From the NCBI GenBank assembly GCA_016929135.1, contig JAFGJK010000142.1:2059-66058 (forward strand): DNA of 64,000 bases, written 5' to 3'. Below are positions 1 through 34,273 of the stretch, one piece after another. The DNA is from Spirochaetota bacterium (lineage in GTDB: Bacteria; Spirochaetota; UBA4802; UBA5550). Under the pieces are notes generated by a model. That model had not been told where the DNA came from. It worked only from the letters and a program-made list of their open reading frames with translations, and did not search any database. Made by a program: the position numbers and the translations under genes. Each line of letters starts with the position of its first letter. The first letter of the stretch is position 1.

Positions 1-501
1 CCGGAGGACGTGAAGGCCGTTTTTCTCACTCATTCGGACCAGGAACATGCCGGCGGGGCGATCAACTTCCCCAATGCCAAGATCTATATCGGCAAGGATG
101 AGGTGCAGATGATCGACGGTACCACCGGGAGGGTGCCGTGGCCGCTGTCGATCGTCTATTACAACGAACTGAAAGTGCCTTACGAGACCTTGGAGGACGG
201 CCAGGTGGTGGATGTGTGCGGCCTCAAGGTGAAGACGGTGTTCTGCCCGGGGCATACTCCGGGAACCGTGGTGTACATAGTGGGGGACAAGCTCATTGCC
301 GGCGATTCCATGGGCTTGAAGGACGGCCGCATCGTTGGCTTCAACGAGTATCTCTTTGTCAATATGGATGTTGAACGCATGAATCGATCGATACGGGATA
401 TTCTGGCGAAGCTTCCCGGCATCACGCAAATCCTGACGATGCATTTCGGTATGACCAGTGACGTCGACAAGGCATTCGAGAATTGGAGAAGAAAGCGGTG
501 A
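1..501 (+). CDS. MBL-fold metallo-hydrolase, 5'-truncated by the window edge (paralog of 15930..16709)
   Basis: The frame is open from nt 1 (PEDVKAVFLTHSDQEHAG...). It has the CPGHTPG His motif and is collinear with the C-terminal two thirds of ORF 15930..16709. Confidence 0.85.
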   Translation, partial: PEDVKAVFLTHSDQEHAGGAINFPNAKIYIGKDEVQMIDGTTGRVPWPLSIVYYNELKVPYETLEDGQVVDVCGLKVKTVFCPGHTPGTVVYIVGDKLIAGDSMGLKDGRIVGFNEYLFVNMDVERMNRSIRDILAKLPGITQILTMHFGMTSDVDKAFENWRRKR

Positions 502-522
502 ATCAACCGCAGAGAGTTTACA

Positions 523-1287
523 ATGAATAAAAGAAACGGGAACTGGAAGAAACGGTCGCTGGTGATCTCCAGCCTGCTTCTTGTCCTGGCGATTGCATTA
601 TTCGGGACGTACAAATACGTCAGAACCCAGCATCGCAAACACTACCATCCCCTGGAGACGCAGGAGGTCTTTCCCGGCGTCTATACGATTCGGGACGATT
701 ACGTCAACGCCTGGTTCATCAGGAGCGACTGCGGCCTCGTGGCGATGGACACTGCGATGCACGCGGGCACCATCAGGCGGGAGATGGCGAAGCTCAACCT
801 GCGTCCCGAGGAGGTCAGGGCGGTGTTCCTCTCCCATACCGACGTGGAGCACGCCGGGGAGCTCAAGGTGTTCCCCAACGCGAAGGTGTACATGGCCCGG
901 GAGGAGGTTCAGATGGTGGACGGTACGACGTACAGGGTGCCTGTGCTGTTCATGAAGAACAGCATCTCCGTCCCCTACGTCACTCTCGTTGACGGACAGG
1001 TGATGGACCTGTGCGGCGTGAAGATCAGATGCATCCTCACACCGGGGCACACGCCGGGATCCATGTCCTATGTGGTGAACGACACGCTGCTTTTCGGAGG
1101 GGATACCCTGAACATGAGAAACGGCAGGATCGAGGTGTTGGACAAGGGCTTCGTCAACATGGACCTTGATACGATGATGAAGTCCATCACAAGGCTCTCG
1201 AAACTGACCGGTATTCGGTATGTGCTCACACTGCACTTCGGGTATGCCGAATTTCAGAAGGCCTTCGAAAACTGGAGGGAGCAGTGA
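523..1287 (+). CDS. Membrane-anchored MBL-fold metallo-hydrolase (paralog of 16737..17501)
   Basis: N-terminal hydrophobic anchor (LVISSLLLVLAIALFG), FLSHTDVEHAG and TPGHTPG motifs, and very high identity to ORF 16737..17501. Confidence 0.9.
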   Translation: MNKRNGNWKKRSLVISSLLLVLAIALFGTYKYVRTQHRKHYHPLETQEVFPGVYTIRDDYVNAWFIRSDCGLVAMDTAMHAGTIRREMAKLNLRPEEVRAVFLSHTDVEHAGELKVFPNAKVYMAREEVQMVDGTTYRVPVLFMKNSISVPYVTLVDGQVMDLCGVKIRCILTPGHTPGSMSYVVNDTLLFGGDTLNMRNGRIEVLDKGFVNMDLDTMMKSITRLSKLTGIRYVLTLHFGYAEFQKAFENWREQ

Positions 1288-1383
1288 AGTGTCGGCATTG
1301 TGGACAGTTAAATAATACCGGGGGAAAGTGCCGAAGGACTGTTACGGCTAAATCATTCCCCCGGAAACGCAGGAGAAGAAAAC

Positions 1384-1491
1384 ATGGGAAAAAAGATCAT
1401 TTTATGGACGCTGGCCTCTGCCGCTGCACTTACCATCGGCATGGCGGTCTATTACGTCGTCATTCTGCTGGTGCACAGGACGTTGCCGTAA
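1384..1491 (+). CDS. 35-aa hydrophobic single-TM micropeptide (MGKKIILWTLASAAALTIGMAVYYVVILLVHRTLP), absent from the ORF track
   Basis: ATG preceded by GGAGAAGAAAAC. It is 23/35 aa identical to the second copy at 17612..17719, with conserved position after the MBL pair and a conserved upstream leader. Confidence 0.65.
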   Translation: MGKKIILWTLASAAALTIGMAVYYVVILLVHRTLP

Positions 1492-1828
1492 GATCACGGC
1501 GGGAAGCATGAAGGGATTGATGGTATCCGGTTCCGGCGAGGACCGGCTCGTCACGGAATTTCGCGACGCAAGTCCCCTTTGCCGGAACCGGGAGCATCAT
1601 CCGGATAGTTTTTCCTGGATGCTGCTGCCGATTATCATGCGGAACGTGCATCGGCAGTTGTGATGATTGATGTGTCGGATACTGCACATCGGCGAGGAAG
1701 CAAATAAGCATTTTAATAAGACTGATTTCTTTGTCAAATATCCGATGGATTATCGATTTCGCGGGAATGGCGGGACATTTATTTGAATATTCAGTTTGAT
1801 AAAAGTCTAAACGGTATTGAGAGAATTT

Positions 1829-2869: not shown

Positions 2870-3038
2870 CGGAGTGAATTTGATGCGCATTGTCATCTCT
2901 CGATTCAGCTATATTTATGCTGAACAAATTTTGGATAAGGGCGATTGGAATTGAAGAGCTGCACCTTTAAGAAATTTAACCGTGTCAGCGAATATCGCAG
3001 TACGGTCCACTACTACTGGAGTGTCGGAGGATTTTCGT

Positions 3039-4133
3039 ATGTACTGTTTATATCCAACGGCCAAGATAATCATCATATCGGGAATCGTAATCAACAGCTT
3101 TACCGCTATTGAACATATCACCGGCCAGCCGAGAGGGAGACGTAATTATTTCCGGTTTGTGAGGGGTATTATCATAAGCGTGTTGATTGCACAACTTGGC
3201 CTGATCGGTTTCGGATATCACCGTGAACATCCCTGTGCGCTTTTCCCATTTCTCACTTTCCTTTATCTCTTCGGTCCCCTCTGGTACATCCGGTATCACA
3301 AATTTCTTAATCCCGGGAGAAAAGTACCCCGCCGGTACGTGCTATCCCTCCTGCCGGCGTTTCCAATATTCATAATTGAACTTTATATACAATCATTGCC
3401 GCGTCCGCGCAAGTATTTCCTTTTTCGGGAATTTTTCAGGAATCCGCTCGAACATTGGATTATATATGTTTTTTTTTCATGTATACTTGTCCTTGTCTCT
3501 TATGCCTGTATGCTCCTGTATGTTCAGATAGGTTTCCTTAAGGATAATATCCTGAAACAACCTCTGCGTCTTTCAATCTTGATATCCACACTCTTTCTGG
3601 CATCGGTGGTCATTATATGCATGTATTGGATAACCATGAATCCCGATTATGTGCTTATTGGCGACAGCATGCTCAGTTCGCTGGTGATTATCTATTTTCT
3701 ATTTAAAAACCGTTTTCCGATATTTTTCCAGCTTCTCACGAAAGAGATCCGGCAGAAACGTTACCGTCAATCCCTCCTGAAAAAGCATGATCGAGAGGTA
3801 ATACATGAACGACTTGCGGAACTCATGAATGATGAGAAATTATACCAGGACATGGACCTGCGCATCAGTGACGTGGCGTCTCAATTGATGATAACCACAC
3901 ACCAGCTTTCGCAGCTGATAAACGAGCGCAATAAAACCGATTTCCGCAACTTCGTGAATCGTTTTCGCATAGAGGAGGCAACGAAACTCCTCTTCGAGGA
4001 GCATGATCGCAGCATCATCTCGATATGCTTTCATGTCGGCTTCAATTCAAAGGCGGCCTTCAATAAGACATTCAAGAAAATGATGGGATGTTCTCCCAAG
4101 GAATTCAGGGAAAATAGTAGTAAACAATTATAA
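3039..4133 (+). CDS. AraC-family transcriptional regulator with a polytopic membrane N-terminal domain (AraC1, the divergent member)
   Basis: The C-terminal HTH_18/AraC signature reads ...THQLSQLINERNKTDFRNFVNRFRIEEATKLL...CFHVGFNSKAAFNKTFKKMMGCSPKEFR. There are multiple hydrophobic helices upstream. ATG 3039 follows GGAGG; GTG 2982 is an alternative start. Confidence 0.85.
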   Translation: MYCLYPTAKIIIISGIVINSFTAIEHITGQPRGRRNYFRFVRGIIISVLIAQLGLIGFGYHREHPCALFPFLTFLYLFGPLWYIRYHKFLNPGRKVPRRYVLSLLPAFPIFIIELYIQSLPRPRKYFLFREFFRNPLEHWIIYVFFSCILVLVSYACMLLYVQIGFLKDNILKQPLRLSILISTLFLASVVIICMYWITMNPDYVLIGDSMLSSLVIIYFLFKNRFPIFFQLLTKEIRQKRYRQSLLKKHDREVIHERLAELMNDEKLYQDMDLRISDVASQLMITTHQLSQLINERNKTDFRNFVNRFRIEEATKLLFEEHDRSIISICFHVGFNSKAAFNKTFKKMMGCSPKEFRENSSKQL

Positions 4134-4307
4134 TTATCAACGACTTCGCCTCTCTCTTCCCCTAATCTTCTATCAGTTTCAGTCGTCGCCTCTTTCCGTG
4201 AATGTTGTGTCGGCTGTTCACGGGATGCGCGGTATGTAACGTCCAATTGCTGATGCGGGGAGATGCGATGAAGATGCAACAATATCTCAAAAGGAGGATT
4301 ATGCAAA

Positions 4308-13961: not shown

Positions 13962-14009
13962 AAGCTCCTTATCGAGAGATTAGATCGATAGCTCGATGAA
14001 ATGTATATT
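13962..14009 (+). promoter_or_regulatory. Conserved element, site A (subtype 1): AAGCTCC-N12-TAGATC-N17-TATATT. It is an orphan, with no ORF close downstream.
   Basis: The sequence is near-identical to site B, with the same fixed 12-nt spacing between AAGCTCC and TAGAYM as in all four sites. The TAGATC / TATATT hexamers are spaced 17 nt apart. Confidence 0.5.
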
Positions 14010-14614
14010 AAAACTCGTCTGGCTATGGCATCTCATATTATTTCAATATGAATGATTCGGAATATGAAATGAAAAAGATGAGAGATCGCGCTGCGTATCG
14101 TAATTCCGATTCCGGTATTGATGGTATCGGCCGGTATGAAGTGCATCCTCTGATATAACAGGCTGGCAGCAGTCCGAAATCATTCACAATCTATCCATTG
14201 TCAGCCAATTCGCAAAGGTGCTCTTGTTTTAACTCGGGATGGTCCATCAGTCCCTTGTTGCATACATTGATCGTGGATCGTCAATATTCGACAGTGGGCC
14301 GAGGGCGGACGATGAGCGAAAGGCAACGGCGGGATTCAAGATGGTTCCTGAAACCGCAAGGGATGTGTCCTTTGCATGAAAAATACAAAATCCACACCGT
14401 TGAGTACAGTTATTACCATTGAGAACGGCAATGGGCTTGAGGTATGCGGTGTAACTTAGTCGTTTCCCTGTGCCGGGCCGCCCGCCCGATGCCATGGTAT
14501 TCATTATGGGAGATGCGATGCGTGCCGGGGATACCATAAACAGTATTGACTACGGCGCTGATATAGTATATCCTTTCCCTTCGACGCATATGGACCGTGA
14601 TTTGAAGTGGCGAT

Positions 14615-15685
14615 ATGGACCTTTTTAAAACCGTGAACTTTATCGGGGCGGTGCAGGGGATGGCGGTATTCCTGATTCTCGCCTTCAGCGGAAAGACGCG
14701 CAGGATGCCGAACCTTCTGCTGTCCGCCGCAGTGTTTCTCCTGTCGCTCAATCTCCTGCTCGATTACTTCTTCCATAGAAACGTCCCGATCATGTACGTA
14801 AAGGACACCTTCTTTCACATATTGATCGCCTTCGCCTGCGGTCCCTTTATTTACCTGTATGTGCGTTCCATTGCAGGATCATATCCGCCTGCCGCGAGGA
14901 AAATCATATCGTACTTTGCCCCCTTTATGCTCGCATCCCTCTTTGTCCTGGTATGCGCATGGAAGCCTTTCGGCCCCGTACTCTACCGGTATTATTTCCT
15001 TGCAGAGCTTTCGTCGCTACTGTGTTTTCTGGTCTTTCTCGTTTTCTCGATCGCTGCGGTGTACCGATACGAGAGATCCATCAGGGATGCCTATTCTAAT
15101 ATCGAGAAGATGAGCCTGCGCTGGCTCCAATTTCTGGTGTATTCCATGGCGATAATCCTTCTCTTCGCCGCGGCACTGTATCTGATGGGACGGGATTTCA
15201 AGTTGATATGGATATTGCTCTCGCTGCTGATGTACGTGATCGGTTATTTTACCTTAAGGAGGCCGGAGATACTGTTGGGGGAGATGGGAAAAAACCGTAG
15301 CGATAAATACGCCACCTCACCGCTGACTGCGGATTTCATCAGCAAGAGCAGGCGTGCCATCGACACGATTATGGAGGAGGAGAAGGTGTACCTGAACAGC
15401 GAGATCACCCTGCCGGTGCTGGCAGGGAAGCTCGCAATGCCGGTGCATCATCTGTCGCAGGTTATCAACCAGGCGTATCACAAGAATTTCTTCGAGTTCA
15501 TCAGCCATCACCGGATCATGGCGGCCAGGGAGATGCTATCCTCGCCGGTGGGGGGAGATCAGAGGATCGTCGACGTATGCTACCGTGTCGGATTCAACAC
15601 CGTGTCGGCCTTCAACAAGTCCTTCAAGAAGATCACCGGCCTGACGCCCACGCAGTTCAGGAATAGGAATTGCCGTATCCCGTAG
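14615..15685 (+). CDS. 7-TM membrane-integrated AraC-family regulator (AraC2)
   Basis: About 7 hydrophobic helices in the first ~215 aa, followed by LPVLAGKLAMPVHHLSQVINQAYHKNFFEFISHHRIMAAREML...GFNTVSAFNKSFKKITGLTPTQFR. Confidence 0.9.
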   Translation: MDLFKTVNFIGAVQGMAVFLILAFSGKTRRMPNLLLSAAVFLLSLNLLLDYFFHRNVPIMYVKDTFFHILIAFACGPFIYLYVRSIAGSYPPAARKIISYFAPFMLASLFVLVCAWKPFGPVLYRYYFLAELSSLLCFLVFLVFSIAAVYRYERSIRDAYSNIEKMSLRWLQFLVYSMAIILLFAAALYLMGRDFKLIWILLSLLMYVIGYFTLRRPEILLGEMGKNRSDKYATSPLTADFISKSRRAIDTIMEEEKVYLNSEITLPVLAGKLAMPVHHLSQVINQAYHKNFFEFISHHRIMAAREMLSSPVGGDQRIVDVCYRVGFNTVSAFNKSFKKITGLTPTQFRNRNCRIP

Positions 15686-15823
15686 ATTGCCTCCATCTTT
15701 GGCCGGAAATATCGGTCGGCACGCATGCAGTGTCGTGTGCAGCTCCTGTCCGGAGTACCGTCGAATCGCCCTTATAACGAATCCCATCGCCCTCATCGCC
15801 CTTTTGCACAATGGATTTCCCGT

Positions 15824-15871
15824 AAGCTCCTTATCGAGCGATTAGATCGATCGTCCTGCCCAGTGTTACCT
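15824..15871 (+). promoter_or_regulatory. Conserved element, site B (subtype 1), about 60-105 nt upstream of the MBL-A start
   Basis: The sequence is AAGCTCCTTATCGAGCGATTAGATCG..., with TAGATC-N17-TTACCT. It lies between AraC2 and the MBL operon. Confidence 0.55.
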
Positions 15872-15929
15872 TCCGCCATAATGAGGCTGAAAAGCCGAAC
15901 AAATTATTCGATGAAGGAGGATTCTGATT

Positions 15930-16709
15930 ATGGCATCGAGAAGACGAAAGATCGCTCTGGGTGTCGGGATACCCCTGGTGGTGCTGCTGACGGTGCTGTC
16001 GGCGCTTGGCCTTCTCTACTACAGGCAGCTGACAAGGTCGCGTGCGGCCATGACACCCATGGAAACGCAGAAGGTGATGGATGGGGTGTATGTGTGCAGG
16101 GCGGCATGGTACAACAACTTCTGGCTCTTCAAGACGGACTGCGGCCTGGTGGCCTTCGACACCGGTTTGTTCCCTGAGAAGACCAGGAGCGAGATGGCCA
16201 AGCTCGGCTTCAGGCCGGAGGATGTGAAGGCGGTTTTCCTCACCCACACTGACCAGGAGCATGCCGGCGGGGTTGTCAATTTCCCCAACGCCAAGGTGTA
16301 CATCGGCAAGGACGAGGTGCAGATGATCGACGGGACCACCGGGAGAGTACCGTGGCCACTATCGATCGTCTACTACAACGAGCTCAAGGTTCCCTATACC
16401 ACTCTGGAGGACGGTGAAACGGTGGATGTGTGCGGCCTCAAGGTGAAGACGGTGTTCTGCCCGGGACATACGCCGGGAATCGTGGTCTACGTGGTGGGGG
16501 ACAAGCTGCTGACCGGCGACACCATGGGTCTGGTGAAGGGTCGCGCCGTGGCCTTCAACGAGTACCTCTGGGTCAATATGAGCAATGAGCAGTTGAATCG
16601 ATCGATCCGGGATATTCTGGCGAAGATACCCGGCATCAAGTACATCCTGAGCATGCATTACGGTATGACAGACGACGCCGACAGGGCCTTCGAGGAGTGG
16701 AGGAACTGA
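15930..16709 (+). CDS. Membrane-anchored MBL-fold metallo-hydrolase (MBL-A, copy 2)
   Basis: N-terminal anchor (IALGVGIPLVVLLTVLSALGLLYY), FLTHTDQEHAG and CPGHTPG motifs, and RBS GAAGGAGG. Confidence 0.9.
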   Translation: MASRRRKIALGVGIPLVVLLTVLSALGLLYYRQLTRSRAAMTPMETQKVMDGVYVCRAAWYNNFWLFKTDCGLVAFDTGLFPEKTRSEMAKLGFRPEDVKAVFLTHTDQEHAGGVVNFPNAKVYIGKDEVQMIDGTTGRVPWPLSIVYYNELKVPYTTLEDGETVDVCGLKVKTVFCPGHTPGIVVYVVGDKLLTGDTMGLVKGRAVAFNEYLWVNMSNEQLNRSIRDILAKIPGIKYILSMHYGMTDDADRAFEEWRN

Positions 16710-16736
16710 AAATTTATCATCCTGCAGGAGGACTCT

Positions 16737-17501
16737 ATGACAGCAAATACTGGAAAAAGTAAAAAACGATTGCTGATCGCCATCGGCGTGCCGGTGGCCC
16801 TGGCGATCGTTTTCTACGGAACGTACAAATACGTGAGAACCCAGCATCGCAAGCACTACCATCCCCTGGCGACGCAGGAGGTGTTCCCCGGCGTGTATAC
16901 GATACGGGACGATTACGTCAACGCCTGGTTCGTCAGGAGCGACTGCGGCCTGGTGGCGATGGACACCGCGATGCACGCGGACACCATAAGGCGCGAGATG
17001 GCAAAGCTCAACCTGCGGCCCGAGGAGGTCAAGGCGGTGTTCCTCTCCCACTCGGACGCGGAGCACGCCGGGGAGCTCAAGGTGTTTCCCAACGCAACGG
17101 TGTACATGGCCCGGGCGGAGGTGCCGGTGGTGGACGGATCGACGTACCGGATACCGATCATTCTCATGAAAAATCACATCTCGGTTCCCTACACGACCCT
17201 GGAGGACGGGCAGGAGATGAATGTGTGCGGGGTGAAGATCCGGTGCGTTCTTACCCCGGGGCACACGCTGGGTTCCATGTCCTACGTGGTGAACGACACC
17301 ATGCTCTTCGGGGGGGATACCCTGAACCTGAGAAACGGCAAGGTCGAGGTGCTGGACCGTGGTTTCGTGAACATGGACGTGGACAGGATGATGAAGTCCA
17401 TCACGAGGCTCTCGCGGCTGACCGGGATACGGCACGTCATCACCCTGCACTTCGGAATTGCCGATTTTCAGAAGGCCTTCGCCAACTGGAGGGAGGAGTG
17501 A
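16737..17501 (+). CDS. Membrane-anchored MBL-fold metallo-hydrolase (MBL-B, copy 2)
   Basis: FLSHSDAEHAG and TPGHTLG motifs, an N-terminal anchor, and paralogy to 523..1287. Confidence 0.9.
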   Translation: MTANTGKSKKRLLIAIGVPVALAIVFYGTYKYVRTQHRKHYHPLATQEVFPGVYTIRDDYVNAWFVRSDCGLVAMDTAMHADTIRREMAKLNLRPEEVKAVFLSHSDAEHAGELKVFPNATVYMARAEVPVVDGSTYRIPIILMKNHISVPYTTLEDGQEMNVCGVKIRCVLTPGHTLGSMSYVVNDTMLFGGDTLNLRNGKVEVLDRGFVNMDVDRMMKSITRLSRLTGIRHVITLHFGIADFQKAFANWREE

Positions 17502-17611
17502 GGGGCGATGCGAATCGCATTGCCAGGACAACACTAATTCCGGTAATGGCGGCCATGCCGCGGCATGTACGGGGCCGGCCGTCCCTTCCCGGAAACGCAG
17601 GAGAGGATACT

Positions 17612-17719
17612 ATGGCAAAGAAACTATTACTGGGCGCGCTCGCCGCTGCTGCGGCCGTGACCATCGGTATGGCGGTCTACTACATCATCGTGCTGGTGGT
17701 GTACAGAACTCTGCCGTGA
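17612..17719 (+). CDS. 35-aa hydrophobic single-TM micropeptide (MAKKLLLGALAAAAAVTIGMAVYYIIVLVVYRTLP)
   Basis: It is hidden as the C-terminus of the spurious ORF 17225..17719. It has its own ATG after GGAGAGGATACT and is 23/35 identical to 1384..1491. Confidence 0.65.
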   Translation: MAKKLLLGALAAAAAVTIGMAVYYIIVLVVYRTLP

Positions 17720-17801
17720 TGGGATGACGGTTCGCGGAAGGAAAGCGGCTCCCGGATAAAATCCTGGAAGAGAATTCAATATCGGACGAACACACATGAG
17801 G

Positions 17802-17840
17802 GCCGTGCAGAAACATGCAAACTGCACGGCTCGCATTTTT
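17802..17840 (+). terminator. Putative intrinsic terminator after the MBL/micropeptide operon
   Basis: 9-bp stem GCCGTGCAG / CTGCACGGC with an 11-nt loop, followed by TCGCATTTTT. Confidence 0.55.
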
Positions 17841-18002
17841 AGATTTATATGTTCCGTTGCCATCGTGCATAGCCATTTATAGGCGAGGAAGACAGCTTGG
17901 CTATCGTTTTGCTATACTCGCATTATGCGAAAGAGGCATGGTGAAATTTCCTCGGCTATAGCGATTTGGCAAAATCAATACGGATAAAGGATACGGTGTT
18001 GT

Positions 18003-19250
18003 ATGAGCACAACGATAAGTAAAAACCGGCTCAACTATGTCGACTGGCTCAGGATCACTGCGGTACTGCTGCTTTTCCCGTACCATACGGGTAGAATTTT
18101 CTGTTCGAAATATTTCTATGTCAAAAATGAAACGGTAAGTGCCGTGGCGACTTTTATTGTGACCTTCATCGGGCAGTGGCACATGCACCTGTTCATGCTC
18201 CTGGCGGGCGTCGGTACCTTTTATGCCATGAAACACCGGAATCCCGGGGAATACATCCGGGAGCGGTTCCTCAGGCTGGTGGTGCCGCTTGCCTTCGGCA
18301 TCTTTGTCCTCATTCCCCCGCTCGCATACTTCAGGCTTTTCGGTAATCCCGATCGCGTATGGCCTGCCGGATTCTCCCACGGCGCGCCGGGAACGGGGTA
18401 CAGCGAAAGCTATTTTTCGTTCTATCCGAATTTTTTCAACGGGATGTTTCCCCGGGGCAACATGGAGTGGGGGCACCTCTGGTTTCTGGCGTATCTTTTT
18501 ACATTTTCTTTGATTGCGGTGCCGGTATTCATGTTCTTAAAAAGCGAGAAGGGAAAGAATCTGATCGATACACTGGCACGATGTGCCACAAAAAAATTCT
18601 GCATCTTCCTGTTCGTCATTCCGATTGTCGTGATTGAAGTATCGCTTCGACGGACCTATCCCGGAGTTCAGAATCTCATCAAGGACTGGGCCAATTTTCT
18701 CACGTACTTCACGGTATTCGTGTCCGGGTATATCATTATGGCTGACAGGCGGTTCCTCGAGGCGATCGACAGGATCCGGGGAGTCTCCCTGGTGATAGGC
18801 ATGGCGATGAACGCGGCGCTGGTTACCTCTCTCGATCTGCATACGGGAAACACCAGCTACAGTAGCATTGTATTCTCGGTTGCGATGATCGTCAAATCCA
18901 TCGCCATCTGGAGCATCCTCCTGGGGCTTATAGGGATGGGGAGGCGATACCTTGACCGCGGCGGCAGGTTTCTCGGATACGCACAAGAAGCGGCGATGCC
19001 CTATTATGTACTGCACCAGACTGCGGTGATGACTGCGGGGTTCTACATTGTGAAGCTCGATGCCGGGGTGGCGGTACAATACATCGCCATAATGCTTTCG
19101 GCGTTCGTCGCCGTTGCCGTCGTATACGAGGTGGCCCTTCGGCGAATTCCGATGCTCGGTTTCTTTGTGGGCATGAAATTGAAACGACGGAGTGTTGCTG
19201 GGAAATCAATTGAATTGGAGGAACTTGCAACACCCGGCAATGCGCAATGA
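18003..19250 (+). CDS. Acyltransferase-3 family integral membrane protein
   Basis: The N-terminus NRLNYVDWLRITAVLLLFPYH is typical of the acyltransferase_3/OpgC-like family. There are about 10 hydrophobic segments. Confidence 0.75.
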   Translation: MSTTISKNRLNYVDWLRITAVLLLFPYHTGRIFCSKYFYVKNETVSAVATFIVTFIGQWHMHLFMLLAGVGTFYAMKHRNPGEYIRERFLRLVVPLAFGIFVLIPPLAYFRLFGNPDRVWPAGFSHGAPGTGYSESYFSFYPNFFNGMFPRGNMEWGHLWFLAYLFTFSLIAVPVFMFLKSEKGKNLIDTLARCATKKFCIFLFVIPIVVIEVSLRRTYPGVQNLIKDWANFLTYFTVFVSGYIIMADRRFLEAIDRIRGVSLVIGMAMNAALVTSLDLHTGNTSYSSIVFSVAMIVKSIAIWSILLGLIGMGRRYLDRGGRFLGYAQEAAMPYYVLHQTAVMTAGFYIVKLDAGVAVQYIAIMLSAFVAVAVVYEVALRRIPMLGFFVGMKLKRRSVAGKSIELEELATPGNAQ

Positions 19251-19332
19251 TAAAAGTATTGACTGCTCGTTGTCCGGTATGTTCATGTTGAAATGAATCG
19301 GAGGATTCTAATAATGATGGAATGAGCTGTCC

Positions 19333-20400
19333 ATGTATGTATTGAAGATCGTGTTTCTTGTCGGATCCATCCAGGGATTCATCACCTCGCTGGCCCTGTT
19401 CTCCTTCGGAAAAACCCACAGGAAGGCGAATTATTACCTCGCCACCTCCGTGCTCGTAATGACTGGCATACTGCTCGTCGATTATTTCTTTCACGGCAAC
19501 GAGCCCTTCCGATTCCTGAAGCATTCCGATTTTCATGCCGTACTGTCCTTTCTCCTCGGGCCGTTGTTGTATCTGTACGTCAAATCCCTGACCGGTCTCG
19601 GGACGCCGAAGAAGAGTGCGGTGATACTCTATTTTACCCCCTTTATATCAGTTTTACTTTTTATGGGAGTATATATCGCGTCAGGATTTCTGCCTCAGGT
19701 ATATCAATACTTTTTCATTATCGAGATCTGTTCACTGCTTTATGTGCTTTCGTTTATTATTTTATCCATCCTGGGAATTCAACGATACGAGAGGGCGATT
19801 CGAGATTCATTTTCCAACCTGGATAAGGTCAGCCTCCAATGGCTGCGCGTAATAGAAATCGTACTGGCAACCATCATACTCGCCGCAGCGGTGTTGTATT
19901 TCTGGAAATCCTATTTCGACATGGTCTGGATTCTTGTGGCGCTCATGATCTATATCATAAGCTATTATACGTTGCGAAAGCCTGATATTTTTTCCGGGAC
20001 GGTGGCAGAGGAGGGTGTGAAAAAATATCAAAAGTCCTCGTTGAATTCGAAGATTCTGCAGGACAACAAGATGAAAATCGATAAAATAATGAAAGAAGAG
20101 AAAGTGTACATGGACAGCGAGATCACGCTGCCGATGTTGGCGGAGAAACTCTCCCTCCCGGTGCATCATCTGTCGCAGATAATCAATCAGGCATACAACA
20201 AGAGTTTTTATGAATTCATAAGCTTGTATAGAATCGAACAGGCAAAGGAACTGATCCTTTCATCGAAGGACGAAGATATAAGGATCATGAACATATGCTT
20301 TCAGGTCGGTTTCAATACGATTTCTTCCTTCAACAAGTCTTTCAAGAAATTCACCGGATTGACCCCCACGCAGTTCAGGAATAAAAAGCATCACTCATAG
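19333..20400 (+). CDS. 7-TM membrane-integrated AraC-family regulator (AraC3)
   Basis: The N-terminus is close to AraC4 (GSIQGFITSLALFSFGKTHRKANYYL). The C-terminal AraC HTH reads LPVHHLSQIINQAYNKSFYEFISLYRIEQAKEL...GFNTISSFNKSFKKFTGLTPTQFR. Confidence 0.9.
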   Translation: MYVLKIVFLVGSIQGFITSLALFSFGKTHRKANYYLATSVLVMTGILLVDYFFHGNEPFRFLKHSDFHAVLSFLLGPLLYLYVKSLTGLGTPKKSAVILYFTPFISVLLFMGVYIASGFLPQVYQYFFIIEICSLLYVLSFIILSILGIQRYERAIRDSFSNLDKVSLQWLRVIEIVLATIILAAAVLYFWKSYFDMVWILVALMIYIISYYTLRKPDIFSGTVAEEGVKKYQKSSLNSKILQDNKMKIDKIMKEEKVYMDSEITLPMLAEKLSLPVHHLSQIINQAYNKSFYEFISLYRIEQAKELILSSKDEDIRIMNICFQVGFNTISSFNKSFKKFTGLTPTQFRNKKHHS

Positions 20401-20522
20401 GGGAGGACAAACAATACCTGTTTCCGCGCTCAGGCATTCCCGGCGACGGTCGTTCAGCACGTATCTCTTCCCACCAGAGAGTGTGAGGTGATATCCGAAT
20501 TTTCTTTTATTGAAATTCGTGA

Positions 20523-20570
20523 AAGCTCCCTATCGGCTCGCTAGACAAACCGATCCTGTCGATATACATT
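20523..20570 (+). promoter_or_regulatory. Conserved element, site C (subtype 2): AAGCTCC-N12-TAGACA-N17-TACATT, about 125-170 nt upstream of the HXXEE gene
   Basis: Same architecture as sites A, B and D. It contains the inverted repeat ATCGG...CCGAT. Confidence 0.55.
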
Positions 20571-20692
20571 TCAACTGTAACGGATGCAAGTTAGAGATGC
20601 ATCGGAGTAGATTCGCCATTTTATCCGGATTCACTTTTATATGACCCACGGAATTTGCGGTATTGGATAGTTATCGGACAAGAGGAGGAGCG

Positions 20693-21247
20693 ATGAACCG
20701 GAGAATAGCGGACGCGGTGATCCCCGGAGTTATTACGGCTGCTCTTGTTGTCGTGTATGCAATAAAATCGCCCGGTTTTTTCAGCATCTATTTCGCACTT
20801 TCGTACATTTTATACCTGCTGACATTTTATAAGCGAATGCCGGACCTGAACCGCGTAGTGCCGCTCTATTTATTGGCGGTGGGCATGCAATTGCTGCATT
20901 TTGCGGAGGAATTCGTCACCGGATATCAGACCAGGATTGCAGCGGAAATCTATCATGTGCAGCCGTTCACCATTAATCAAATGGTAATAAGTCAGATGGT
21001 ACTTTTCTTTTTTACCATTGTGGGGGCGATCGCAATCGTAAAAAAATGGAAGATACCCATGTTCATGGTGTGGTTCGTCGTAATTATGCAGATGATGGTC
21101 AATGCTGTCCAGCATCCGATATTTTCGATAATGGTGCACGGCTATTTTCCCGGCCTGATCACCTCCCAGGTGGGATGGGTTCTCGGGCCCATACTTTTCA
21201 AACGCCTGTGGGAAGTCAGAAGGTATCCTGCGTCGGGAAACCCGTGA
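20693..21247 (+). CDS. HXXEE-domain membrane protein (copy 1)
   Basis: LHFAEEF motif in a 4-5-TM protein. ATG 20693 follows GAGGAGGAG. It is a paralog of 27840..28400. Confidence 0.8.
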   Translation: MNRRIADAVIPGVITAALVVVYAIKSPGFFSIYFALSYILYLLTFYKRMPDLNRVVPLYLLAVGMQLLHFAEEFVTGYQTRIAAEIYHVQPFTINQMVISQMVLFFFTIVGAIAIVKKWKIPMFMVWFVVIMQMMVNAVQHPIFSIMVHGYFPGLITSQVGWVLGPILFKRLWEVRRYPASGNP

Positions 21248-21331
21248 CAGGAGTGTCGACGCTGTGATACTTTTGTTTGATCGATCTTGAAAATCACAGC
21301 ATTGATTATCTCATGAAGAGGAAGATTTCAT

Positions 21332-22438
21332 ATGAAGAAGCGATTTTCGGTAAAGAGACGATTAAGCGTAACCGGCATTGTTGTGTTGCTGCTGGTTCCA
21401 ATTCTGATCGGGCTTTTCTTTATATTCGAGGATAACCTGATCAGATATGGAATACGGGATCAGGTCAAACGGAGAATGGTACAGACGGACTCCCGGCTGA
21501 ATGAAAAGGGGCTGAGGGTAATTCTTTTGGGAACAGGCTCTCCAATTATTGATAAGGAACGTACAATGCCCTGCAGCGCGGTAATCGCGGGAGGGCATAT
21601 TCTGATATTCGACGCAGGGCTGAGCGCCGCGAGGCAGTTCGGAATCAGAAAACTATCCTGGGATACGCTGGACGCGGTGTTCCTGACCCATATCCACGAC
21701 GATCATTTCTCCGGCCTTGGCCAGTTGATCCTAAGCAGGTGGATGCAATGCAATATGAAAAATAAAACACGGCCGCTTGACGTGTTCGGGCCCTCCGGCA
21801 CGGCCGGGGTGGTGAAGGGATTCGACGACGCCTATGCGTACCAGAACAGGATCCGATCCAATGCCGTGTACAACTATCCCCTTTCCGGAAGCGTGGGCGT
21901 GGCGCATGAAATCTCGATCAACGGGATGGAGAAAAAGCTGGTATATGAGAAGGACGGAATCCGCGTCTACGCCTTTTCAGTGGACCACATGAACCCCCTT
22001 GCGGTAAAAAAAGTTACTTTCGATGCCTTCGCCTACCGTGTCGAATACCGGGGGCAGGCCGTCGTGTTCAGCGGCGACTGCCGGGGGGATTCTCCGATAA
22101 CGAGGGAGAACCTGGAGCGGTATTCCCAGGATGCGGACATACTGGTCATGGAGATGTATCCCAAGTTTATAACGGACAATGCACTTATCGCCATGAGAGA
22201 TTTCGGCCTCGATGACTATGCCAGGCAGCTGGAGATCGCATCGGCACACCATGCCACCGACATCGATGGCGCGATGATTGCACAAAAAGCAAGGGTCAAG
22301 AAACTGGTTTTCAATCATCTCATACCGACGGATTTTCTGATCAAACATCAGACACTGCGACATACACGGAAATATTATAAAGGCGAATGCGTAGTATCCG
22401 AGGATTTTATGGAGATCAATCTCCCTCCCCTGGATTGA
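21332..22438 (+). CDS. MBL-fold metallo-hydrolase (RNase Z / Lactamase_B_2-like) with an N-terminal membrane anchor
   Basis: LLGTGSPI, FDAG, and canonical LTHIHDDHFSGL motifs. The N-terminal hydrophobic helix is GIVVLLLVPILIGLFFIF. Confidence 0.85.
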   Translation: MKKRFSVKRRLSVTGIVVLLLVPILIGLFFIFEDNLIRYGIRDQVKRRMVQTDSRLNEKGLRVILLGTGSPIIDKERTMPCSAVIAGGHILIFDAGLSAARQFGIRKLSWDTLDAVFLTHIHDDHFSGLGQLILSRWMQCNMKNKTRPLDVFGPSGTAGVVKGFDDAYAYQNRIRSNAVYNYPLSGSVGVAHEISINGMEKKLVYEKDGIRVYAFSVDHMNPLAVKKVTFDAFAYRVEYRGQAVVFSGDCRGDSPITRENLERYSQDADILVMEMYPKFITDNALIAMRDFGLDDYARQLEIASAHHATDIDGAMIAQKARVKKLVFNHLIPTDFLIKHQTLRHTRKYYKGECVVSEDFMEINLPPLD

Positions 22439-22510
22439 AGTTCGATATTCCTTGCCAGAGGGATTGGTCGGTGGACCTGAGATAACTGCATATTTTCCGG
22501 AGGTGGAACG

Positions 22511-23425
22511 ATGGGTTTTTCCGAAACGGGTCGTGAGATTCTGCAGGCCGACAACACTACGAAGTTACCCGCCTATGTCTGGATGCCCCGGGGCGGCCTC
22601 CGGGGGGTTTTGATAGGGATTCATGGAGGCATGGCGCACGGGGGCGACTGGGTGACGCCGGCGCTCTGGTTCATGAAGAGGGGCATCGCCACGTACGCGC
22701 CGGACCTCCGGTGGCACGGGACCTATCCGCAGTACAATCCCGGCGGCAAGGTGTTCTTCCATATAAATTCGTATGATGAGTACTGCCGGGACATACATGC
22801 GCTGTATCAATGGGTCAGGGCGAAGCATCCAGGCGTGCCGATATTCGTCATTTCCCATTCCAATGGCGCCCTTATCGCGCTTTTGTACGGCCTTACGGTC
22901 GGACGTGATGCAGATATTAAGGGGTTTATCGTCTCATCCCCCTGGCTGGAGAACAGGGTCAAGGTGCCGGCGCTCCTGCTGAACCTGTCAAGGGTCATCT
23001 CGATACTGGCACCGCGTTTTACGATTAAGCCCGCTCCACTGATCGACTCGCTCACGCATGATCCGCAGATTACGGCCCGGCACCGCGCCGATGAAGCGGC
23101 GGGCCTTCGCGGCACCATGGTCACCGCGCGGCTCGGTGTCGAGTCGATGAAGGCGCAGAAGTGGGTGATCAGTCATATGAAGGAATGGAACCGTTTTCCC
23201 CTCTTCGGTATAATCGCCGGTAAGGACGCCCTTGCCGACCCGGACGTGAGCGAAGCCGTGTTAAGGAAAGTCGAACCGTACCTGTTACGAATGCTCCGGT
23301 ACAATGAGAATTTTCATGAGAATTTCAACGAGGTCAACAGAGAAGAAATATACAAGAATATCGAGAATTGGATGGCCGGGCTGATGCCGGACATGCAGAT
23401 TGATGCGCCGGTGCGAGCACATTAG
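22511..23425 (+). CDS. Alpha/beta hydrolase (lysophospholipase / monoacylglycerol-lipase-like)
   Basis: GIHGGMAHGGDW oxyanion region and the nucleophile elbow ISHSNGA. Length and layout match the Hydrolase_4 family. Confidence 0.8.
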   Translation: MGFSETGREILQADNTTKLPAYVWMPRGGLRGVLIGIHGGMAHGGDWVTPALWFMKRGIATYAPDLRWHGTYPQYNPGGKVFFHINSYDEYCRDIHALYQWVRAKHPGVPIFVISHSNGALIALLYGLTVGRDADIKGFIVSSPWLENRVKVPALLLNLSRVISILAPRFTIKPAPLIDSLTHDPQITARHRADEAAGLRGTMVTARLGVESMKAQKWVISHMKEWNRFPLFGIIAGKDALADPDVSEAVLRKVEPYLLRMLRYNENFHENFNEVNREEIYKNIENWMAGLMPDMQIDAPVRAH

Positions 23426-23515
23426 GGATCACTAAGAAAATACAGTGTGAGGTTGTTGGGTTTCGATTCACAAAGTGGAGGATTATTATGAAGAGTGAAC
23501 AGAGTCCCAACTTGA

Positions 23516-25075
23516 ATGCTTATGAGGTCAGGTATGGAGAATATAACCGGATTTTTTCTCAGATCATACGCCAATCGTGCAATCATTGAACGGCAAAAGG
23601 CGCAGGCATTTTTCGTTATTCTTATTGTGAGCTTTGCATTGATGTTTGCTAATATAATTGTGAATATCATCATGCATCGGCAATTGTCAACGATTCCATG
23701 GCTCGCATCCGTTGAAGTGATTTTTATCATCTCCTTTATCCTGTTGAAAAAAGGACACAACAGACTTGCAGTCCATATCGTGCTCGTTCCAATTTTTATC
23801 ATTTTGTGGTACACCCTTTTTTCAGGTTTTATGAAGGAGGATCTCCTCATGAATTGCGACACGGTGGCGTATGTGTTCGCACTTCTCTCTTTCGTGGCAC
23901 TTGCATCGGGGAGAATCTCCATCGTCCTTTATTCTGCGGGGAATATCGTGGCCGTCGTGATATTTTGCTTTTATGGTGAATCACACGGCTATATGACCGG
24001 ACCACAGATGCATGATTATCTGATTAATAATGCACTTACCTTCATTGTTATCGGGATCACATCGTATACCGTGCTGAACAACAGCCGAAAATCAAACAGG
24101 ATAATTAAGGCATCCTTGGAGGAGAGCAATCAACGCGGAGAGAGTATCCGGAGAATCCTCGATGAAACCAACAGCGTCGCTGTCCAGCTGTCAGCGTCCA
24201 CCGAGGAGATGTCCGGCTCGACGTTCATATTCTCGACAAAAACTCAGACACAAGCCGCCTCAATCGAAGAGATAACCTCCACCGTCGAGGAAGTCGCTGC
24301 AAGCGGTGAGGGCATCTGTACCATGGCCCGCACTCAGACCGGTCTTTCCGAGAAGGGGCAGGGGGACATGGAAAACCTTTATAACAATGCCGTCAAAGTC
24401 GGGGATAAGATGCGGGGCGCATTGGCAATCAGGGACAGACTCAACGAGGTCGTCGATACATTCAAATCAGAGATACAGGACCTTCTTCTGGTTATCGCAA
24501 CCGCCATGTCGAAATTCAAAAACGTAAAGGATACCGTCAGTGTCATCGAGGAAATATCGGACAAGATAAACCTCCTTTCGCTGAATGCGGCCATCGAAGC
24601 CGCCCGTGCCGGCGTGTATGGTCGAGGTTTCGCGGTGGTGGCCGATGAGATCGGGAAGCTCGCTGAAAGTACCACCACAAATCTGAAGTCTATAAACACC
24701 CTGTTCAATGTGAGCAACGATGAAATCGGCAACCTCTACAGCAGGCTTGAAGCGTTCGTACACTCTCTCAACGGTATGATCGATTACATCTCGGAATTCA
24801 GCAAGCGAATCGATCTGGTCGTAGAGCTGACCGAAGAGGACCTTTCCCTCAACAGGACTGCCAGGGAATCGCTGGGAGCCCTGCACATAGAAGCGATTAA
24901 TATCCTCGGAGCCGCCAAGGAGCAGAAGACGGCACTTGAAGAAATCGCCAGGAGCATCTCCCACATCAATGGTGCGACCCAGGATATCGCCACCGGAGTA
25001 AGGGACCTTTCCGATACATCAAAGGAACTATCAGACACCGCCCGGCAGCTCATGGGAATGTCGCGGTACGCATAA
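23516..25075 (+). CDS. Methyl-accepting chemotaxis protein with a polytopic N-terminal membrane domain
   Basis: Highly conserved MCP signalling hairpin [33 protein letters not shown]. The start is uncertain (ATG 23516, 23522 or 23534). Confidence 0.85.
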
Positions 25076-25360
25076 CCGCGAGAAGCCTGCTTCGTTAATC
25101 CATCTTCAAGTCTCATCTCTTCTCTTTTTATTATATGCTCGACGATGTCTCTGTGGTCGTCCCATTTTTCAGGTGCCTGATACCCGGGAAGGCTCAATTA
25201 CAGCACAGCACCGAGTCATCAGCATATCGGCACCTCCAGCGTCAGACTTTGCGCCAACCTCATCCCGAGAACGTGAATGTCTGTGTCTTCCTCGGTTTGT
25301 CCGGGTGAGCTTTTATGCCGTATCCCCTCTGGTTGCAATATGAACATCAGCAATTTATTC

Positions 25361-25410
25361 AAGCTCCCTATCGGCTGCGTAGACAACCGCTTCAGACATT
25401 CGATATATAT
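25361..25410 (+). promoter_or_regulatory. Conserved element, site D (subtype 2): AAGCTCC-N12-TAGACA-N17/18-ATATAT/TATATA, about 40-90 nt upstream of the PreA-like gene
   Basis: Same architecture and fixed spacing as sites A-C. Confidence 0.55.
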
Positions 25411-25450
25411 TCGATACAGTCATTACTAAGAACAACACGGAGGACGATAC

Positions 25451-31506: not shown

Positions 31507-31535
31507 TTGACTGTACCTTTTCATACTGGTATGAT
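31507..31535 (+). promoter_or_regulatory. Sigma70-like promoter upstream of AraC4
   Basis: TTGACT (31507-31512), a 17-nt spacer, then TATGAT (31530-31535). Related AGTATTGACT boxes precede AraC2 (near 14545) and AraC3 (near 19258). Confidence 0.55.
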
Positions 31536-31633: not shown

Positions 31634-32692
31634 ATGAACATTTTACGGCTGCTGTTTCTCGCGGGGGCGATTCAGGGCTTCTTTACCTTCCTGGCGCTCT
31701 TTTCCTTCGGGAGGACCCATAAAAAGGCGAACTACTACCTCTCCTTTACAGTATTGACTCTTACGATCAACATGATCACCGACTTTCTGTTTCACGGCAA
31801 CGAGCCATTCAGCTACCCGAGCCATTCGAACCTTCACTCACTTCTGGCATTCACCTACGGTCCCCTCATCTACCTCTATGTCCGGGATCTCACGGGATTC
31901 CCGTCGCCCGGTGTGCGCAGGATACTCTGGTATTTCTCCCCCTTTTTCATTGCGCTTGTCTATATGGCCCTTTGTTATTACCCACGGATAAACCGGATAC
32001 TCTATCCGTACTTCTTCATACTTGAGATTCTCGCCATGCTGAACGTGCTCTGCTTCATCGGATTCTCCATCCGGTACCTCTTCTTGCACGAGCGGGCGAT
32101 CGAGAGTTCCTATTCGAACTTGGAGAAGGTGAGCCTGATATGGTTGCGTCTCATTATTTATTCCATGGCGATTATCATCAGTGCGGCGGTGGTTCTCTAT
32201 TTCTACAGGCCCTACTTCGACGTCATATGGCTCCTTGTGGCGATTCTCATCTACATCATGAGTTATTTCACCATCCGGAGACCCGGGGTGCTGTCGGGTT
32301 TACTAGAAGGGGGGAAGATGGGGAAATACCAGAAGTCATCCCTCAGTACAGAGATGCTTCAGCGGAACAAGAAGGCAATCGAACGATGCATGGAGGAGGA
32401 GAAGGTGTACCTGGACAATGAGATTACGCTGCCGGTGCTGGCGGAGAAGACGTCGATCCCGATGCATCATCTCTCCCAGATCATTAACCAGGTGTACGGT
32501 AAGAATTTTTACGAGTTCATCAGCCATTATAGGATAATGGCCGCCAAGGAGATGATGCTCTCTCCGGAGTACGATGAGCAGAAGATCATCGATATCTGTT
32601 TCCGCGTCGGATTCAACACCATATCGGCATTCAACAAATCATTCAAGAAGATCACAGGGCTTACGCCTACTGAATATAGGAATAGAAAATAA
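31634..32692 (+). CDS. 7-TM membrane-integrated AraC-family regulator (AraC4)
   Basis: The N-terminus LFLAGAIQGFFTFLALFSFGRTHKKANYYL is close to AraC3. The C-terminal AraC HTH reads IPMHHLSQIINQVYGKNFYEFISHYRIMAAKEM...GFNTISAFNKSFKKITGLTPTEYR. Confidence 0.9.
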   Translation: MNILRLLFLAGAIQGFFTFLALFSFGRTHKKANYYLSFTVLTLTINMITDFLFHGNEPFSYPSHSNLHSLLAFTYGPLIYLYVRDLTGFPSPGVRRILWYFSPFFIALVYMALCYYPRINRILYPYFFILEILAMLNVLCFIGFSIRYLFLHERAIESSYSNLEKVSLIWLRLIIYSMAIIISAAVVLYFYRPYFDVIWLLVAILIYIMSYFTIRRPGVLSGLLEGGKMGKYQKSSLSTEMLQRNKKAIERCMEEEKVYLDNEITLPVLAEKTSIPMHHLSQIINQVYGKNFYEFISHYRIMAAKEMMLSPEYDEQKIIDICFRVGFNTISAFNKSFKKITGLTPTEYRNRK

Positions 32693-33103: not shown

Positions 33104-33177
33104 TGGGCGATATTGGATTCGAACCAACGACCTCCTGCATGTGAGGCAGGCGCTCTAACCGACTGAGCCAATCGCCC
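33104..33177 (-). tRNA. tRNA-Val (anticodon CAC)
   Basis: The reverse complement GGGCGATTGGCTCAGTCGGTTAGAGCGCCTGCCTCACATGCAGGAGGTCGTTGGTTCGAATCCAATATCGCCCA folds as a 74-nt cloverleaf. It has a 7-bp acceptor stem, a CTCACAT anticodon loop and a GTTCGAATC T-loop. No CCA is encoded. Confidence 0.95.
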
Positions 33178-33217: not shown

Positions 33218-33358
33218 GCAGAAAGTTCAGAAACAGATAAAGAGTTGCATATTTTGCCGATCGGTGATATGGTATGAAAAAAGGTTAGGGGTCTTTGGGC
33301 ATACATTCACGCAGATAAACAGAGAATATACAAATACTGCACAATCAGGGGGGATGTG

Positions 33359-34273
33359 ATGAAAAAGATCGTACTTCTCTGTGTCACCGTGTTCATTTTA
33401 CTGGCATCTCTATCCATGGCACGGGCCGTTACCCTGAGCGTGGGGGGGAACCTCTGGTACAACTGGTGGATCCCGGCCTTCAAGGAGGGGAAGCTGGAAT
33501 CCATGGTATATGCCCCATCGGTGCCGTACCTGGCCTACCGGTTTTCCGACAGCAGGGACATCGGCTCCACCTCAACCGTCACCGGCGGTCCGGCCCTCTC
33601 GGTCAGGATCGACCGGTTCTCCCTCTCCACGGTGCTGGTCTACGCCAATTACAGGGTCAGGAACAACGGACTCACGAGGAGCCGCAATTATATTCTGTAC
33701 CCTGCATTGCCCGCCTCTGCCGCAGCGGCATATGTCGAATCATACCTCAGTATCAGGCGATGGGACAGCGATACCACCCTGAGCTATTCCCTCACCCCCG
33801 TGATGTCCCTGCTCCTGGGGCTGAAGGTCCAGAGCTACAGCCTGAAGAGCAGGACCGCCGACCTGGTTTCGGGTATCGTCAAGGCGTCCGATGACTTCAT
33901 CACCGTCGGTCCCGGTCTCGGTCTCGGCCTCACCATACCCCTGGTGTCCGACCTCTTCCTGATCTGCAACACTACCGTTTTCCTCCTCTGGAGCAGGCAG
34001 GAGGCATCGAAGAACATAATGGTGCCGTCGGGGGTCGTCATTTACTTTGACGACGGCAGCTACTTCGGCCTGGGAACCACCGTCATGGTTGCCGGTGCCT
34101 ACGTCCTCTCCTCGGTCAACACCACCCTGGCCCTGGGACTGCGTTACCAGCTGCTCTGGTACCGCAGTCTGGACGACCGTTCCGGCACCGTGAACGTCGA
34201 CCGGAAGATGGATCACAACTGTGGCATCACCTTATCGGCGATCTACACCTTCGATTTTTCAAATGATGATTGA
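33359..34273 (+). CDS. Secreted hypothetical protein, probable outer-membrane beta-barrel
   Basis: Signal peptide MKKIVLLCVTVFILLASLSMARA, alternating hydrophobic beta-strand pattern, aromatic-rich C-terminal strand (LSAIYTFDF). Confidence 0.6.
   Translation: MKKIVLLCVTVFILLASLSMARAVTLSVGGNLWYNWWIPAFKEGKLESMVYAPSVPYLAYRFSDSRDIGSTSTVTGGPALSVRIDRFSLSTVLVYANYRVRNNGLTRSRNYILYPALPASAAAAYVESYLSIRRWDSDTTLSYSLTPVMSLLLGLKVQSYSLKSRTADLVSGIVKASDDFITVGPGLGLGLTIPLVSDLFLICNTTVFLLWSRQEASKNIMVPSGVVIYFDDGSYFGLGTTVMVAGAYVLSSVNTTLALGLRYQLLWYRSLDDRSGTVNVDRKMDHNCGITLSAIYTFDFSNDD

Follow-up and report, generated by a model that had tools for sequence, protein, structure and literature searches.

A stretch of 64,000 nucleotides (nt) from a Spirochaetota bacterium (contig JAFGJK010000142.1; the whole stretch is called the window here) carries a short DNA element at five intergenic sites, A to E, four of them exact matches to one pattern and the fifth probably a diverged copy. 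All five lie on the + strand inside a 19-kb cluster that runs from AraC2 to AraC4, and they head five operons. Each element is best explained as a regulated promoter, in which an operator unit of about 25 bp for the polytopic-membrane AraC regulators of the cluster (AraC2, AraC3 and AraC4) would be fused at a fixed distance to a promoter of the sigma-70 type. We put the probability of this reading at roughly 0.6. The 8-bp core of the unit appears to be the conserved half-site of this AraC family. The motif has definable bounds, a consistent placement, conservation and a kinship to the half-site found beside homologous regulators. The sites are as follows.

Site A, 13962..14009, + strand: AAGCTCCTTATCGAGAGATTAGATC (13962-13986), a 17-nt spacer, then TATATT (14004-14009); exact match to AAGCTCC-N12-TAGAYM.
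Site B, 15824..15872, + strand: AAGCTCCTTATCGAGCGATTAGATC (15824-15848), an 18-nt spacer, then TACCTT (15867-15872); exact match.
Site E, 17870..17918, + strand: TAGCCATTTATAGGCGAGGAAGACA (17870-17894), an 18-nt spacer, then TATACT (17913-17918); probable copy, from reading of the sequence, a matrix and a sigma-70 scan.
Site C, 20523..20570, + strand: AAGCTCCCTATCGGCTCGCTAGACA (20523-20547), a 17-nt spacer, then TACATT (20565-20570); exact match.
Site D, 25361..25409, + strand: AAGCTCCCTATCGGCTGCGTAGACA (25361-25385), an 18-nt spacer, then TATATA (25404-25409); exact match.

The pattern AAGCTCC-N12-TAGAYM matches the window exactly four times, at 13962, 15824, 20523 and 25361, always on the + strand, and never in 100 dinucleotide shuffles of the window (G+C content 58%). 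These are the positions at which a sequence-only reading had first described the element. Allowing up to three mismatches adds no further site in the window. The heptamer AAGCTCC by itself is only mildly over-represented (15 occurrences against 8.2 expected), so the signal resides in the composite pattern. Sites A, B, C and D are all intergenic and point in the same direction as the genes. A count of four is correct for the exact pattern; it misses the diverged site E, and it includes site A, which heads no live gene.

Site E came from outside information. When 127,952 window positions are scored with a matrix built only from two sites outside the window, one in a Spirochaetaceae metagenome-assembled genome (L006) and one on a Logan contig (L030), the five highest scores belong to D, B, A, C and, in fifth place, E. 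The score of site E is attained by 6 of 200 shuffles, and a matrix built from sites A to D alone does not recover it. Support for site E depends on the matrix used, and position 17870 is therefore graded as a probable fifth, more diverged copy. It is identical to the L030 site at 20 of 25 positions. Nothing else in the window scores above shuffles; the best match that is not a site, CATCACCTTATCGGCGATCTACACC at 34225-34249, has a score within the shuffle range and sits at the 3' end of the open reading frame (ORF) 33356-34273, about 440 nt before a gene at 34690.

The copies fall into two subtypes whose cores are as first described, namely TTATCGAG(A/C)GAT in A and B and CTATCGGCT(CGC/GCG) in C and D. 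The positions that do not vary between subtypes form discrete blocks only: A2 G3 C4, T9 A10 T11, G13 and A21 G22 A23. The 6 bases that separate TATCG from TAGA are fully exchanged between subtypes. A scan string proposed earlier put 7 nt in this gap and has no matches, since the true gap is 6 nt. The core block YTATMG is invariant among the copies, and the operator consensus over about 25 bp reads wAGCTC, then C-Y-T-A-T-M-G-R, then N5, then kAGAyM. Relative to the -10, the unit extends from about -54 to -30. A half-palindrome thought to change in step between subtypes is present in A, B and C only and fails in D, E, L006 and L030. The words ATCG, CGAT and TCGATA do recur 3' of the core at variable positions (13990-14000, 15846-15853, 20551-20564 and 25400-25416). 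In C and D, ATCG/CGAT words lie over the -10 (TCGATATACATT and TTCGATATATATTCGATA), which may represent the site of a second protein or an effect of composition.

The 3' part of the element has the layout of a sigma-70-type promoter, with a -35-like hexamer at the end of the unit and a -10 at 16–18 nt. A TAnnnT hexamer stands 16–18 nt after the xAGAyM hexamer in five of the seven sites (A to E, L006 and L030), namely TATATT in A, TACCTT in B, TACATT in C, TATACT in E and TATAAT in L006. From the TAnnnT frequency of local intergenic DNA, the probability of five in seven by chance is about 1.5e-6. The spacers to the A/T-rich hexamer agree with the 17–18 nt given at first: 17 in A, 18 in B (with TTACCT at 17), 17 in C and 18 in D (TATATA). 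A sigma-70 consensus scan picked up sites C and E. The -35-like hexamer is never TTGACA, and its second base is always A (TAGACA, TAGATC and AAGACA). Such a non-consensus -35 would fit a promoter that needs help.

AAGCTCC and TAGAYM, both invariant and always 12 nt apart, could also be taken as the -35 and -10 of an alternative sigma factor, an interpretation that we consider very improbable. The spacers of sigma-70-family promoters are 15–19 nt, and no promoter class of this family is known to have a spacer as short as 12 nt. The cluster contains no sigma factor gene. A sigma-70-type -10 lies 16–18 nt after TAGAYM far above chance, and the TAT.G between the two supposed hexamers is just as invariant as they are.

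The history of the cluster includes duplications, and these bear directly on why the copies resemble one another. Window positions 1-1500 and 16215-17717 form a segmental duplication with 84–86% nucleotide identity, which carries the module of MBLa, MBLb and a small peptide. The window start cuts the first copy of the module, and the adjoining sequence outside the window may hold another element; on that left flank, Logan contigs break at the duplication. Sites A and B are identical at 33 of 38 positions from -9 to +29, and their adjacent flanks match at 8 of 31 and 10 of 31, the level of chance. After site A, the region of the start codon is 74% identical to its site-B counterpart by blastn. 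By blastx, the region following site A gives collinear matches, in different frames, to MBLa residues 1-55, MBLb 125-166 and MBLb 174-197; it holds no intact ORF and no Rfam match. Site A thus evidently arose by duplication of site B together with its gene, after which the gene died. Sites C and D are identical at 23 of 27 positions inside the element and at 11 of 40 and 5 of 33 outside it, again at chance.

It could be argued that descent is the whole explanation. Promoters would have been duplicated with their paralogous modules, with no shared regulator and with constraint only as sigma-70 promoters. The cluster is in fact built from duplications, site A is a copy of B and its gene, and C and D are alike over the whole promoter. 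The similarity nevertheless ends abruptly at the edges of the element, with flanks at chance. Site A has kept 24 of 25 element positions identical to B, with a -10 that is the best among the sites, while the co-duplicated gene beside it decayed, which argues that the element is still in use. Between subtypes, only AGC, TAT.G and AGA persist and the intervening 6 nt are fully replaced. The regulators are only 47–56% identical, so neutral DNA of such age would be randomized, and the blocks persist in L030 as well. Likeness through descent alone is accordingly quite improbable. The sharp edges and the contrast between site A and its pseudogene indicate that the copies are under selective constraint and are more than recent duplicates. 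Site A is then most simply explained as a promoter that would read through a relic leader of about 600 nt into AraC2. Descent does account equally well for the division into A/B and C/D, A being the duplicate of B.

The same comparisons bear on the idea of a structured RNA or a mobile dispersed repeat, which we regard as the least credible explanation. There are short inverted repeats, and the predicted fold of site A has an energy of -10.8 kcal/mol (z = -1.66). The folds of the seven copies nevertheless differ, with z from -1.66 to +0.54 and no common helix, and there is no match in Rfam even at E <= 1. An RNA hairpin, entertained at the outset, is set aside on these grounds. As for a mobile repeat, the element lacks terminal repeats and does not occur within genes, similarity covers only 27–38 bp, and the five copies all stand at operon heads; 27 of 28 hits in a scan of genomes other than the source genome (see below) look like chance.

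The regulators proposed to read the element are encoded beside it. The genes and other features of the cluster are as follows.

AraC1, 2982-4133: fourth, more distant paralogue.
MBL remnant, 14048..14600, + strand: decayed, frameshifted copy of the gene after site B (blastn and blastx).
AraC2, 14615..15685, + strand: polytopic-membrane AraC-family regulator, ~7 hydrophobic segments and then HTH_18 (Pfam 2.5e-18; hydropathy).
AraC3, 19333..20400, + strand: polytopic-membrane AraC-family regulator (Pfam, hydropathy).
Sigma-70-like promoter of AraC4, 31507-31535, + strand: TTGACT-N17-TATGAT, near-consensus, with an extended -10 (TG before the -10).
AraC4, 31634..32692, + strand: polytopic-membrane AraC-family regulator, with no element adjoining.
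tRNA gene, 33104-33177, - strand: Rfam 72.8 bits, after AraC4, the right bound of the cluster.

Within their first 215 residues, AraC2, AraC3 and AraC4 each have six to seven hydrophobic segments, and the double helix-turn-helix of the AraC/XylS family comes after these (HTH_18 matches of 3e-18 to 5e-19 in Pfam). AraC3 and AraC4 are the most similar pair, as first noted, at 56% identity against 47–48% for the remaining pairs. The DNA-reading helices of the three proteins are nearly identical, and the helices HHLSQ[IV]IN and GFNT[IV]SAFN are invariant from this genome through to distant relatives, so a shared half-site is expected. No dedicated Pfam or NCBIfam model for this membrane-AraC family was found, and the open-access literature yielded no description of the family, its operator or the motif. 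The closest AraC homologues, at 51–59% identity, all come from JGI sample 3300075153, where the gene orders AraC-HXXEE-MBL and FGGY-LarN-AraC are found.

On the + strand, the gene order starts with an FGGY kinase, a LarA-like gene and SGL, followed by site A, about 600 nt without an intact ORF, and AraC2. Site B comes directly after AraC2 and precedes MBLa (start codon at 15930, 106 nt away), MBLb and a small membrane peptide. Site E follows and stands 85 nt ahead of an operon of an acyltransferase and AraC3. Directly after AraC3 is site C, 140–170 nt from the start codon of an operon of HXXEE, MBL, a hydrolase and an MCP. Site D is 90 nt from its start codon and lies 42 nt ahead of the PreA-like gene, which is followed by an amidohydrolase, HXXEE, RpiB, Dak1, Dak2 and TAL, then by a gap of 344 nt and AraC4. 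These distances are consistent with the roughly 40–170 nt upstream of operons first given for B, C and D. The same account had the site-D operon ending at AraC4. The 344-nt gap carries its own near-consensus TTGACT-N17-TATGAT, so AraC4 is probably not the last gene of that operon.

Comparison with other genomes shows where the element is kept. On the Logan contig L030, a gene for an AraC protein 65% identical to AraC4 is followed directly by TAGCTCCTTATAGGCGGAGGAGACA and then by an MBLa-like gene, which is the order of AraC2, site B and MBLa in the window. A comparison of orthologous intergenic regions, as had been suggested, thus finds the element kept between an AraC gene and an MBL gene. 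The L030 site is of the site-E type. The pairing of AraC3 and AraC4 with subtype C/D is thus not supported: an AraC4 orthologue adjoins a subtype-E-like site, and the DNA-reading helices are nearly identical.

The exact pattern was also run against 185,579 genomes (596 Gb), the source genome not being among them, and gave 28 single hits. Twenty-seven look like chance matches within apparent coding sequence, and only L006 is convincing. There, AAGCTCCTTATCGAACAAATAGACA-N17-TATAAT forms a near-consensus TAGACA-N17-TATAAT 35 nt before a gene for a Zn-dependent dehydrogenase and follows a terminator-like hairpin. L006 is a real promoter of the same layout. The ADH promoters orthologous to it in related spirochaetes read GCTAACATATGGACA-N17-TATAAT or TACAAT. 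The element is not a general promoter feature. None was found in 220 kb of other spirochaete loci, or in operons of PreA, amidohydrolase and HXXEE (69–71% identity) without a membrane AraC, one of which (L126) has a TetR instead, and the remainder of the window has no copy either.

Further information comes from 80 loci (L033-L112) with distant polytopic-membrane AraC homologues, at 28–37% identity and mostly from other phyla, collected from a metagenome scan. The full element is found in none of the 80. In their flanks, k-mer enrichment identified CTTATAA/TTATAAG, which 28 of 146 flanks contain and none of 89 controls. In context, this word belongs to two direct repeats of C-Y-T-A-T-M-R-G exactly 21 bp apart, 26–234 nt past the stop codon of the regulator and before the next gene (for example L033:3473-3514, L044:7125-7166, L045:7175-7216 and L060:5439-5480). 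All 31 half-site pairs within 400 nt of a regulator gene lie downstream of it, and 30 of the 31 are at exactly 21 bp; a near pair is present in 21 of the 80 loci. The other 428 kb holds 6 pairs, a density 38-fold lower than near the regulator gene. The repeats look like the operator, and point to the regulon, of a regulator family for which no description was found. At 5 of the 10 downstream genes checked with Pfam, the product is a PEMT/ICMT-like membrane methyltransferase.

The invariant block of the element is CTTATCGA in A, B and L006, CCTATCGG in C and D, TTTATAGG in E and CTTATAGG in L030. The repeat words of the distant loci include CTTATAAG, CTTATCGG, CCTATCGG and CTTATAGG. Between the two sets, the words are identical or almost so, their orientation agrees, and they stand about equally far from the start codon (core to start codon, 72–164 nt in this system and 78–152 nt in the distant relatives). 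Longer matches exist between the L037 unit CTTATCGGCTCG and the site C 12-mer CCTATCGGCTCG, and between CCTATAGGCGAG in L038 and TTTATAGGCGAG in site E. The family unit consensus reads nCCnAn, CTTATAAG and nTAGnnAGnCT in succession, and its A, G and C at +14, +15 and +17, respectively, fall on the AGAC of the -35-like hexamer. The motif is thus kept beside a homologous regulator at the L030 site, and its core half-site recurs beside distant homologues in the 21-bp repeats. Eight base pairs carry too little information for the 128 kb of the two strands, and the link to the family depends on position, orientation and the L037 and L038 matches. The CCGAT downstream of the core in site C also resembles the flank before the second unit in L037 and L066, but it is 5 bp farther away.

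Several results weigh against the regulated-promoter reading. The -10 of site B is weak, and L030 is without a good -10 at the right spacing. No membrane AraC is encoded within 8 kb of the perfect copy in L006, and the AAGCTCC and TATCG blocks are absent from the orthologous ADH promoters even though these promoters are homologous; both points also make it doubtful that L006 is part of this regulatory system. There is one half-site per promoter here against two units 21 bp apart in the distant relatives, so that the two half-sites expected for a dimer are seen only in the latter. A search of the seven sites over offsets from -60 to +60, +/-21 bp included, found no second core common to them. 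AAGCTC, the best-conserved block, has no counterpart in the family consensus. Finally, the family half-site matrix does not single out the window sites, with 16 loose matches in the window against 23 in shuffles.

Some of these results invite the suggestion that a different factor, a repressor or a global regulator, binds the element instead of the neighboring membrane AraC proteins, perhaps at a repressor operator that overlaps the promoter. L006 has the motif and a near-consensus promoter with no AraC gene nearby, AAGCTC is unmatched in the family operator consensus, and the ATCG/CGAT words 3' of the core, which in C and D reach over the -10, could mark the site of a second protein. Set against this, the five window sites and the L030 site all adjoin membrane-AraC genes, the core is identical to the half-site that follows the distant homologues, and no other regulator gene is common to these loci. 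A different factor is for these reasons improbable.

The regulated-promoter reading suggests a simple mechanism. The C-terminal double helix-turn-helix of a membrane-anchored regulator would bind the 25-bp unit, and a ligand sensed by the membrane domain would lead the regulator to help RNA polymerase at a promoter with a non-consensus -35. Operons for MBL-fold hydrolases, HXXEE membrane proteins, an acyltransferase, a chemoreceptor and a PreA-like oxidoreductase would be switched on in this way. With site A upstream of AraC2 and site E upstream of AraC3, auto-regulation or cross-regulation could result. Binding, the direction of regulation and the pairing of paralogues with sites are here predictions drawn from sequence. 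The sequence-only reading had proposed an activator site abutting the -35. The link between operator and promoter is supported by the confinement to the cluster, by L030 and by the family half-site; activation rather than repression, and a class II contact with RNA polymerase, we continue to infer.

Such an arrangement is conventional in kind, yet it belongs to an apparently unstudied membrane-AraC family. At activator-dependent promoters of the AraC/XylS family, the promoter-proximal site overlaps the -35, as with the AraC I1-I2 sites at araBAD, XylS at Pm, RhaS and MelR. The present system shares with these the regulator with a C-terminal double helix-turn-helix (HTH_18/HTH_AraC), the asymmetric operator reaching into a non-consensus -35, the regulator gene beside its target and, in the distant relatives, direct-repeat half-sites with 21-bp periodicity. 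It differs in having a single unit per promoter, a motif sequence unrelated to known operators, and regulators that are polytopic membrane proteins, where the known ones are soluble and carry a cupin or another ligand domain. A second close parallel is the class II marbox of MarA, SoxS and Rob; of these, MarA and SoxS are small, soluble and monomeric and act across the genome. Both have one asymmetric site of about 20 bp for one double helix-turn-helix domain overlapping the -35, with two patches about one helical turn apart (here the centers of TAT.G and AGAC are about 11.5 bp apart). The consensus is different, however, an extra invariant AAGCTC stands upstream of the core here, and binding as a monomer would be conjecture for the present regulators.

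Membrane tethering of a DNA-binding domain, by which target promoters must be brought to the membrane, is shared with ToxR, TcpP and CadC. Those proteins are single-pass, with an N-terminal OmpR-type winged helix, whereas the regulators here have six to seven N-terminal hydrophobic segments and a C-terminal AraC-type domain. Papers with titles on such membrane-integrated one-component transcription factors include PMC10629549, PMC7888679 and PMC6320335.

A wider proposal is more doubtful, and we offer it tentatively. The element could be the local form of a cross-phylum operator system in which polytopic-membrane AraC one-component sensors read C-Y-T-A-T-M-R-G just downstream of their own gene. 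Here, the regulator would have been triplicated and the operator shrunk from two units spaced by 21 bp to one that is fused to the -35. The promoters would be transcribed while membrane-tethered, and a cascade of paralogues is possible. On the assumption that each regulator acts at the site immediately following its gene, AraC2 would be assigned to A/B, AraC3 to C/D and AraC4 to sites of the E/L030 type. As speculation, AraC3 would then be under AraC4-type control, with an AraC4-type regulator at site E driving AraC3, AraC3 acting at C and D, and AraC2 acting at A and B.

Should the regulated-promoter reading hold, a widespread and apparently uncharacterized family of membrane-embedded AraC proteins would have both a defined operator and a candidate regulon. 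The operator would permit regulons to be predicted from sequence alone and the family to be tested directly.

Some smaller observations touch on the same genes. Lone half-sites of the family type are present at 15771-15778 (CTTATAAC), just after AraC2 and 59 nt upstream of the site-B core, and at 4169-4176 (TCTATCAG), between AraC1 and an MFS gene; these could be vestigial or weak operator units. A conserved ORF for a hydrophobic peptide of about 35 amino acids (MAKKLLLGALAAAAAVTIGMAVYYIIVLVVYRTLP) follows each MBL pair, at 17613-17717 and 1385-1489. In Spirochaetia, operons of ADH, FGGY and SGL (L113:9900-10000 and L123:9530-9632) have a conserved upstream block, TGCTAACATATGGACA-N17-TATAAT or TACAAT, which probably serves some other regulator as its operator. 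The window carries a related set of FGGY, LarA and SGL directly before site A.

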